IMG/VR virus record: IMGVR_UViG_2529292920_000008
Strand: one strand, 5' to 3'
From: a virus
Lineage: Duplodnaviria > Heunggongvirae > Uroviricota > Caudoviricetes
Length of the DNA stretch: 18,300 nt
Under the pieces are notes generated by a model, which was not told the origin of the DNA, did not search any database, and saw only the letters and a list, made by a program, of their open reading frames with translations. Shown here piece after piece: positions 17,699-18,300 of this stretch. Numbering within the stretch: the stretch's first letter is position 1; the number at the start of each line of letters is the position of its first letter. Made by a program: the position numbers and the translations under genes.

Positions 17699-17922
17699 GT
17701 GCCGCAACGAAACGACAGGAGCCACAGCACACCGACGACCAGTCCGAAGAATAATTCCTGGTTCAGGATGCGGGCTGGTCACCAGAGTGACGCGGATATT
17801 TATATTTATGACGAGATTGGTTTCTGGGGTGTTACAGCGAAGCAGTTTATCAGTGATCTGAATGCACTGGGCGATATCACCCACATTAATCTCCATATTA
17901 ATTCACCGGGTGGCGATGTCTT
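17699..17922 (+). pseudogene. prohead protease (ClpP/S49-like), 5' fragment truncated by IS insertion
   Basis: GTG 17699 behind AAGGAGG. Product contains DIYIYDEIGFWGVTAKQFISDLNAL and HINSPGGDVF, characteristic of ClpP-like prohead proteases. The frame then reads into unrelated sequence and stops after 18 codons, where the IS-like element begins. Confidence 0.6.
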
Positions 17923-18300
17923 TGTAACCGGCTCATTTAAACCGTCTGGTCTGTTTCCTCCGGCTCTACAAAAATAATGTCCATCATTTTTAATGGACAC
18001 TATCGTATGAAACACCGGACCTGGATCACTGAAGCTTTACGTCTCCACTTTGAAGAACATTTACCCCGGGTTGTGGCCGGGCGTCGCCTGGGTGTACCAA
18101 AATCAACAGTTTGTAGTATGTTCGTGCGCTTTCGGAGAGCTGGCCTTTCGTGGCCTTTGCCCGCAGGCATGTCGGAGCAGGAACTTGATGCCTGCCTTTA
18201 CGGACAATTTTCCACGGTACCAGTCGTACGTCCTGAAAGCACCGTTATATCCGAAGCCCCCGTGGTAAAAAACGTCCCGGCGGCCCAACTTCCCTTATGA
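17923..18300 (+). mobile_element. IS21-family insertion sequence, left end and start of istA (continues beyond window)
   Basis: Abrupt loss of protease homology at about 17922, then TGTAACC... and an ORF whose N-terminus carries IS21-family IstA hallmarks (LRLHFE, AGLSWPLPAGMSEQELDACL). Family assigned from memory; the exact left boundary is not established. Confidence 0.55.
18007..18300 (+). CDS. istA: IS21-family transposase IstA, N-terminal part (partial)
   Basis: MKHRTWITEALRLHFEEHLPRVVAGRRLGVPKSTVCSMFVRFRRAGLSWPLPAGMSEQELDACLYGQ... with HTH and the GLSWPLP motif. Open to the window end. Start uncertain (17977 or 18007). Confidence 0.55.
   Translation: MKHRTWITEALRLHFEEHLPRVVAGRRLGVPKSTVCSMFVRFRRAGLSWPLPAGMSEQELDACLYGQFSTVPVVRPESTVISEAPVVKNVPAAQLPL

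Follow-up and report, generated by a model that had tools for sequence, protein, structure and literature searches.

Probable interruption of a prohead protease/major capsid fusion gene by an ISCro1-like IS66-family element in an mEp460-like prophage of enteropathogenic Escherichia coli DEC1E

In lambdoid phages related to mEp460, the prohead protease and the major capsid protein are parts of a single polypeptide. The intact gene spans 2,028 bp and encodes 675 aa (locus L001, 4799-6826), its product scores 985 bits against NF045540, and profile searches place the Pfam domain CLP_protease at residues 31-191 and Phage_capsid_4 at residues 375-672. No separate capsid gene follows the fusion gene in these relatives; what comes after it is a DUF2190 gene, then a small gene with the annotation "DNA breaking-rejoining protein" and the tail genes. 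Since the same head module, at ~99% identity, is carried by isolated lambdoid phages, among them mEp460, Ayreon and phi458, the intact version can be regarded as functional.

Ends that begin with GTAA are typical of the IS66 family of insertion sequences, and the name ISCro1 was first given in Citrobacter rodentium. ISCro1 is an IS66-family element (PMC8764528). The complete copies that we compared (three records) measure 2,698-2,699 bp and encode TnpA of 225 aa, TnpB of 115 aa and a protein of 523 aa annotated as "IS66-like element ISCro1 family transposase", with profile matches to TnpB_IS66 (E 4.7e-40) and, for tnpC, to DDE_Tnp_IS66 (E 2.5e-103). In the copy at locus L006, the intact tnpA product reaches 295.8 bits against NF038385, the IS66 TnpA equivalog (cut-off 150), and the left and right ends form imperfect inverted repeats, matching at 16 of 22 positions and both starting with GTAA. 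Target duplications of 8 bp flank two of the complete copies, GATTCTTA at L006 and TGTCATTC at L002. As a point of comparison from the IS21 family, we used IstA loci of the ISFK1 and ISSso4 types (L008 2471-2740 and L009 2480-2750), whose proteins bear rve and Mu-transpos_C_2 domains; the ISSso4 locus (L009) has istB downstream. A literature search returned nothing useful on the end and duplication features of the IS66 family or on the nomenclature of the E2348/69 prophages.

The window, by which we mean the whole stretch of 18,300 nt analysed here, is the entire draft contig AIEZ01000006.1 of assembly GCA_000249135.2 from enteropathogenic E. coli DEC1E. The AIEZ accession is one of the drafts of the DECA collection, which were presumably pyrosequenced, and homopolymer length problems are evident near both ends of the contig. 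Two of its ORFs, of 107 and 69 aa, are on record in GenBank solely on this contig, as EHU31090.1 and EHU31091.1. The window holds the early-right and late-left portion of an mEp460-like lambdoid prophage, which is the counterpart of the prophage adjoining torS in E2348/69: bases 1-17924 align with the latter in a single alignment at 99.7% identity that stops at 17924, and the fusion gene is intact in E2348/69. Large terminase, a small W-like gene, the portal gene and a ClpP-like frame succeed one another (Table 1), this being where a lambda-type late operon has its left end. A second portal/protease segment was not found in E2348/69, the closest relative, where this segment occurs once, and no obvious spare copy of the gene is therefore apparent.

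Table 1. Features of the terminase-to-IS region, in window coordinates
Feature	Coordinates	Strand	Basis or remarks
Large terminase gene	13934-16036		GpA_ATPase and GpA_nuclease domains
Lambda-family portal gene	16245-17666	+	Pfam Phage_portal_2, E 6e-82
ClpP-like prohead protease/major capsid fusion gene, 5' stub of 75 codons	17699-17923	+	Alignment to the intact gene
Predicted 8-bp target site, ATGTCTTT	17916-17923	+	Inferred from duplications at two complete copies
Read-through tail of the protease frame, IS-encoded	17924-17977	+	17 codons, VTGSFKPSGLFPPALQK; TAA stop at 17975-17977
ISCro1-like IS66-family element, left 377 nt (left 14% of the element)	17924-18300	+	Identity to annotated copies
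Left terminal inverted repeat, GTAACCGGCTCATTTAAACCGT	17924-17945	+	Same as the left end of complete copies
tnpA (IS66-like accessory protein), 5' part	17977-18300	+	NF038385, E 7e-28, profile positions 1-80 of 190

Apart from the interrupted gene, the two prophages differ at a few places. Relative to E2348/69, the window has a 1-nt deletion near base 31 and an 8-nt insertion, GGCTGTCA, at 13210-13217, which is intergenic and lies between a Rha-family gene and a DUF1441 gene (the terminase small subunit, according to the annotation of related phages). About 27 substitutions are clustered at 10922-11475, only in the holin and lysozyme genes, which suggests that recombination has replaced a short patch of a prophage that is elsewhere nearly identical. 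In the portal gene an extra A at 17649, outside any homopolymer, shifts the frame relative to E2348/69 and E. coli 377323_2f (CP039404), so that the product has 473 aa vs 502 and ends in 5 new residues in place of the last 34 native ones. This base is missing from all 12 phage relatives among the matches listed (3990 query bases vs 3989 record bases), and it is either a second lesion in a head gene or a read error.

The protease frame starts with a GTG at 17699, and the translation of 17699-17977 reads VPQRNDRSHST…HINLHINSPGGDVF, then VTGSFKPSGLFPPALQK, then a stop. Compared with the intact gene of 377323_2f, the stub has one substitution and is otherwise identical through …GATGTCTTTG, beyond which divergence is total; the last base that matches the intact relatives is 17923 (…HINSPGGDVF). 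The stub aligns with NF045540 at positions 2-45 of 652 only, scoring 58.7 bits vs a cut-off of 475, and its Pfam Clp protease match is weak. The full-length combination of a ClpP-fold protease with an HK97-type capsid domain, by which NF045540 is recognized, is present in the intact allele of the relatives and lacking in the stub, and we conclude that the window carries a truncated allele of a member of this family. A preliminary description of this DNA had reported a frame intact through HINSPGGDVF that then runs into unrelated sequence and a stop, as both the translation and the alignment to the intact gene confirm; its statement that the prohead protease is truncated is right as to the protease and understates the damage, the gene being a protease/major capsid fusion.

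The break in homology at 17923/17924 falls exactly on an IS terminus, one that three independent copies have in common although their flanks are unrelated to each other. Foreign DNA begins at 17924 with GTAACCGGCTCATTT, and the sequence GTAACCGGCTCATTTAAACCG… is the left end of these three IS copies; this is no chance resemblance, and the IS-like end that had been placed at about 17923 is thereby located exactly. The terminus starts with GTAA, as IS66 ends do, and the element lies after codon 75, between 17923 and 17924, with its tnpA oriented along the phage late operon. The stretch from 17924 to 18300 has thousands of matches on E. coli chromosomes and plasmids at 97-99% identity, all annotated "IS66-like element accessory protein TnpA", and one substitution and the loss of 1 nt in each of two homopolymers set these 377 nt apart from the intact copy at L006. 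By these identities, the inserted element is an ISCro1-like member of the IS66 family. Such an element is present in 1313 of the 5426 complete E. coli genomes, at up to 17 places per genome. The contig end falls 377 nt into the IS, so that the window shows neither the right end of the element nor a target duplication nor the downstream portion of the gene; a contig break inside a multi-copy IS is a typical repeat-induced break. We also considered four ETEC plasmids that match from 17900 onwards as remnants of the same junction and rejected them, as alignment showed the flank to be unrelated and the extra matching bases to be due to chance.

The tnpA ORF within the element has 107 aa, includes the motifs LRLHFE and GLSWPLP, and shows no Pfam domain at E ≤ 0.01. 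Its NF038385 score stays under the full-length cut-off because tnpA is truncated, only the 5' part of the gene being in the window. Close to the contig end the frame is broken: the run A6 (18267-18272) followed by C3 (18276-18278), vs the standard A7 and C4, leads to a TGA at 18298-18300. Of the 1856 E. coli records that match, 1625 have exactly A7C4 and just 10 have A6C4, and the copies of the sister strain DEC1B also read A6. These shortened runs may be homopolymer sequencing errors rather than established mutations. The A-run is placed exactly at the border of two TnpA modules; as a separate matter, we rejected A6 as a programmed frameshift site between them, given the in-frame A7 in 1625 of 1856 records and A6 in only 10.

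The same ORF had been taken for the IstA of an IS21-family element on account of its LRLHFE and GLSWPLP motifs. The motifs are indeed present, and the likeness extends beyond them: the N-terminal ~70 residues (window 18007-18210; residues 7-78, or 72 residues, in the pairwise alignment, E 6e-14) are 42% identical to the N-terminus of a true IS21 IstA, that of the ISFK1 family, which has the domains rve and Mu-transpos_C_2; all the aligned TnpA and IstA proteins have LSWPLP unchanged; and when the ORF was run against plasmids by tblastn, real IS21 istA genes were among the weaker matches (best E 3e-7). No IS21 profile, however, matches either the ORF or its 225-aa full-length homologue at E up to 10, against E 7e-28 for the IS66 TnpA equivalog; in copies ~99% identical, the ORF continues to 225 aa with helix-turn-helix (HTH) domains only and no DDE (rve) domain, and is followed by tnpB and tnpC of IS66 rather than by istB, which is absent from the complete copies. 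The GTAA termini and the 8-bp target duplications also speak against IS21. The gene content of the full-length copies refutes the IS21 assignment, to which we allow practically no probability, and the kind of search proposed in the preliminary description does retrieve, for 17924-18300, IS copies (97-99% identity), which belong to IS66/ISCro1 and not to IS21. ISCro1 TnpA joins an N-terminal module (residues 1 to ~97) to a canonical IS66 TnpA domain (residues 102-219, NF047595), and the comparison indicates that the IS21-like motifs represent a genuinely shared N-terminal HTH module and are no sign of IS21 membership. We see about an even chance that ISCro1-type TnpA is a two-module protein whose first ~97 residues are homologous to the DNA-binding N-terminus of some IS21 IstA proteins, which would imply that an HTH module for end recognition or regulation was exchanged between unrelated IS families, the border between the modules lying at an A7 run whose occasional slippage to A6 cuts the protein in two.

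Cumulatively, we consider it highly probable that an ISCro1-like IS66 element transposed into the protease/capsid fusion gene of the mEp460-like DEC1E prophage after codon 75 and abolished head formation; the junction with its uniqueness, the identity and family of the IS and the nature of the gene are observed, the phenotype and the simple form of the insertion deduced. On this model, the element would have jumped in between 17923 and 17924, and translation from the native start would yield a product of 92 residues, 75 of them native and 17 IS-encoded. This product would be without the Ser at about residue 101 (in GVAASMAS) and the His at about residue 124 (in MMIHKP), which we take to be the catalytic residues by analogy with the ClpP family, and it would end before the linker, with nothing left of the capsid domain (residues ~375-672). 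Since the fusion gene is hit after codon 75, the capsid would be lost along with the protease, the capsid domain being parted from the start codon and from the N-terminal protease/scaffold portion. Proheads would then not assemble and no infectious particles would be formed, unless the function were supplied in trans, as another prophage of DEC1E might do. The prophage is thus very likely head-defective, in agreement with the morphogenesis defect proposed earlier. In the E2348/69 counterpart, the genes for the tape-measure protein and gpJ (J) are annotated as frameshifted (L007 38895-41950 and 44341-48055), so a tail defect may have existed in the lineage before the insertion in DEC1E took place.

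If the insertion is a simple one, as we infer, the 8-bp site ATGTCTTT is predicted to be duplicated beyond the right IS end, with the 3' part of the gene following it. The right junction would then read …GACGAGTCGCTTAC/ATGTCTTT/GAAGGCATCGCC…, the continuation of the gene being also given as GAAGGCATCGCCATTTTTAATGC, or in short form …CGCTTAC/ATGTCTTT/GAAGGCATC…, from which the expected remnant ORFs were derived. The three 8-bp targets ATGTCTTT, GATTCTTA and TGTCATTC are all T-rich. The IS could instead mark a deletion or rearrangement, in which recombination between ISCro1 copies, or a deletion adjacent to the element, took away or displaced the downstream portion of the gene and perhaps a further stretch of the late region. 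That the contig stops inside the IS would fit such an event, as would the existence of several copies of the element in many E. coli genomes, with as many as 17 places per genome, and its position at contig ends in sister strain DEC1B, where at least three contigs are concerned (protein P0027). Yet the exact sequence of the predicted 574-aa remnant ORF, which starts at the first ATG past the junction, occurs on two contigs (NCBI, Logan) of the protein collection, where further 5'-truncated forms of the fusion protein have 568 and 555 aa, and where complete copies are found elsewhere, they have inserted in the simple manner, between 8-bp duplications. The 574-aa ORF is consistent with a simple insertion without proving one, and it might derive from another strain; on balance we regard a deletion or rearrangement as unlikely. 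The gene is inactivated under simple insertion and under deletion alike.

An assembly artefact, namely a chimeric join of phage reads with IS reads from elsewhere in a genome whose fusion gene is intact, would be favoured by the draft state of the assembly, by the homopolymer miscounts near both contig ends and by the occurrence of the junction in one assembly only. It is nevertheless very unlikely that a random chimera would have its join exactly where the real IS begins (GTAA…), a position that three independent copies define, and at repeats assemblers normally break contigs instead of inventing junctions, so we give this explanation very little weight, less than the deletion. Insertion of the ISCro1-like element into the fusion gene remains the reading that we adopt. 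In the species-representative genome contigs (one genome per species), neither the left junction nor the predicted right junction has an exact match, as is expected there for the right one, and the junction was not found in any complete E. coli genome. The junction ORF forms a singleton cluster among ~15 billion proteins, from DEC1E only. By these database comparisons the insertion is private to DEC1E, and it is recent as well, since the junction is unique to this strain while the prophage is 99.7% identical to that of E2348/69 with its intact gene. The earlier suggestion that the accessory genes are kept for the benefit of the host finds no support: with so recent an insertion, seen in DEC1E only, and with the rest of the prophage 99.7% identical to the E2348/69 one, the intact genes (methyltransferase, membrane protein) say nothing on selection.

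The family of the element is hereby corrected from IS21 to IS66/ISCro1, and the DEC1E prophage should be scored as head-defective, the disrupted gene encoding both the head protease and the major capsid protein. The locus adds a further example of an IS inactivating structural genes of prophages in pathogenic E. coli. It also calls for caution, as a contig that ends in an IS tells nothing about the presence of the remaining gene or prophage. The event itself is ordinary and strain-specific, involving an element that already has a name and a mechanism that is nothing new; the module shared by TnpA and IS21 IstA is the sole mildly unusual point.

Set beside the described systems, the DEC1E gene shares its first 75 codons, with one substitution, and its gene order with the mEp460-like fusion gene (NF045540) of E2348/69 and 377323_2f, but what can be made from its native start is no more than the first 11% of the protein, without catalytic residues or capsid domain. 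The window IS and the ISCro1 copies have a common left terminus, a common tnpA start and ~99% identity, whereas the tnpA of the window copy has A6/C3 in place of A7/C4, so that its frame is broken, and in no other genome examined was an insertion found at this site of the protease/capsid gene. With IS21 IstA of the ISFK1 family, ISCro1 TnpA has LSWPLP and 42% identity over 72 residues in common, but it is without the rve domain and the IstB partner. Finally, in many EHEC-type prophages the same IS splits tail-fibre genes, as in E. coli MBT-5, where N- and C-terminal tail-fibre fragments lie on either side of the element (L002 3733-8023), while in DEC1E it is a head gene that is interrupted, and in one strain only.
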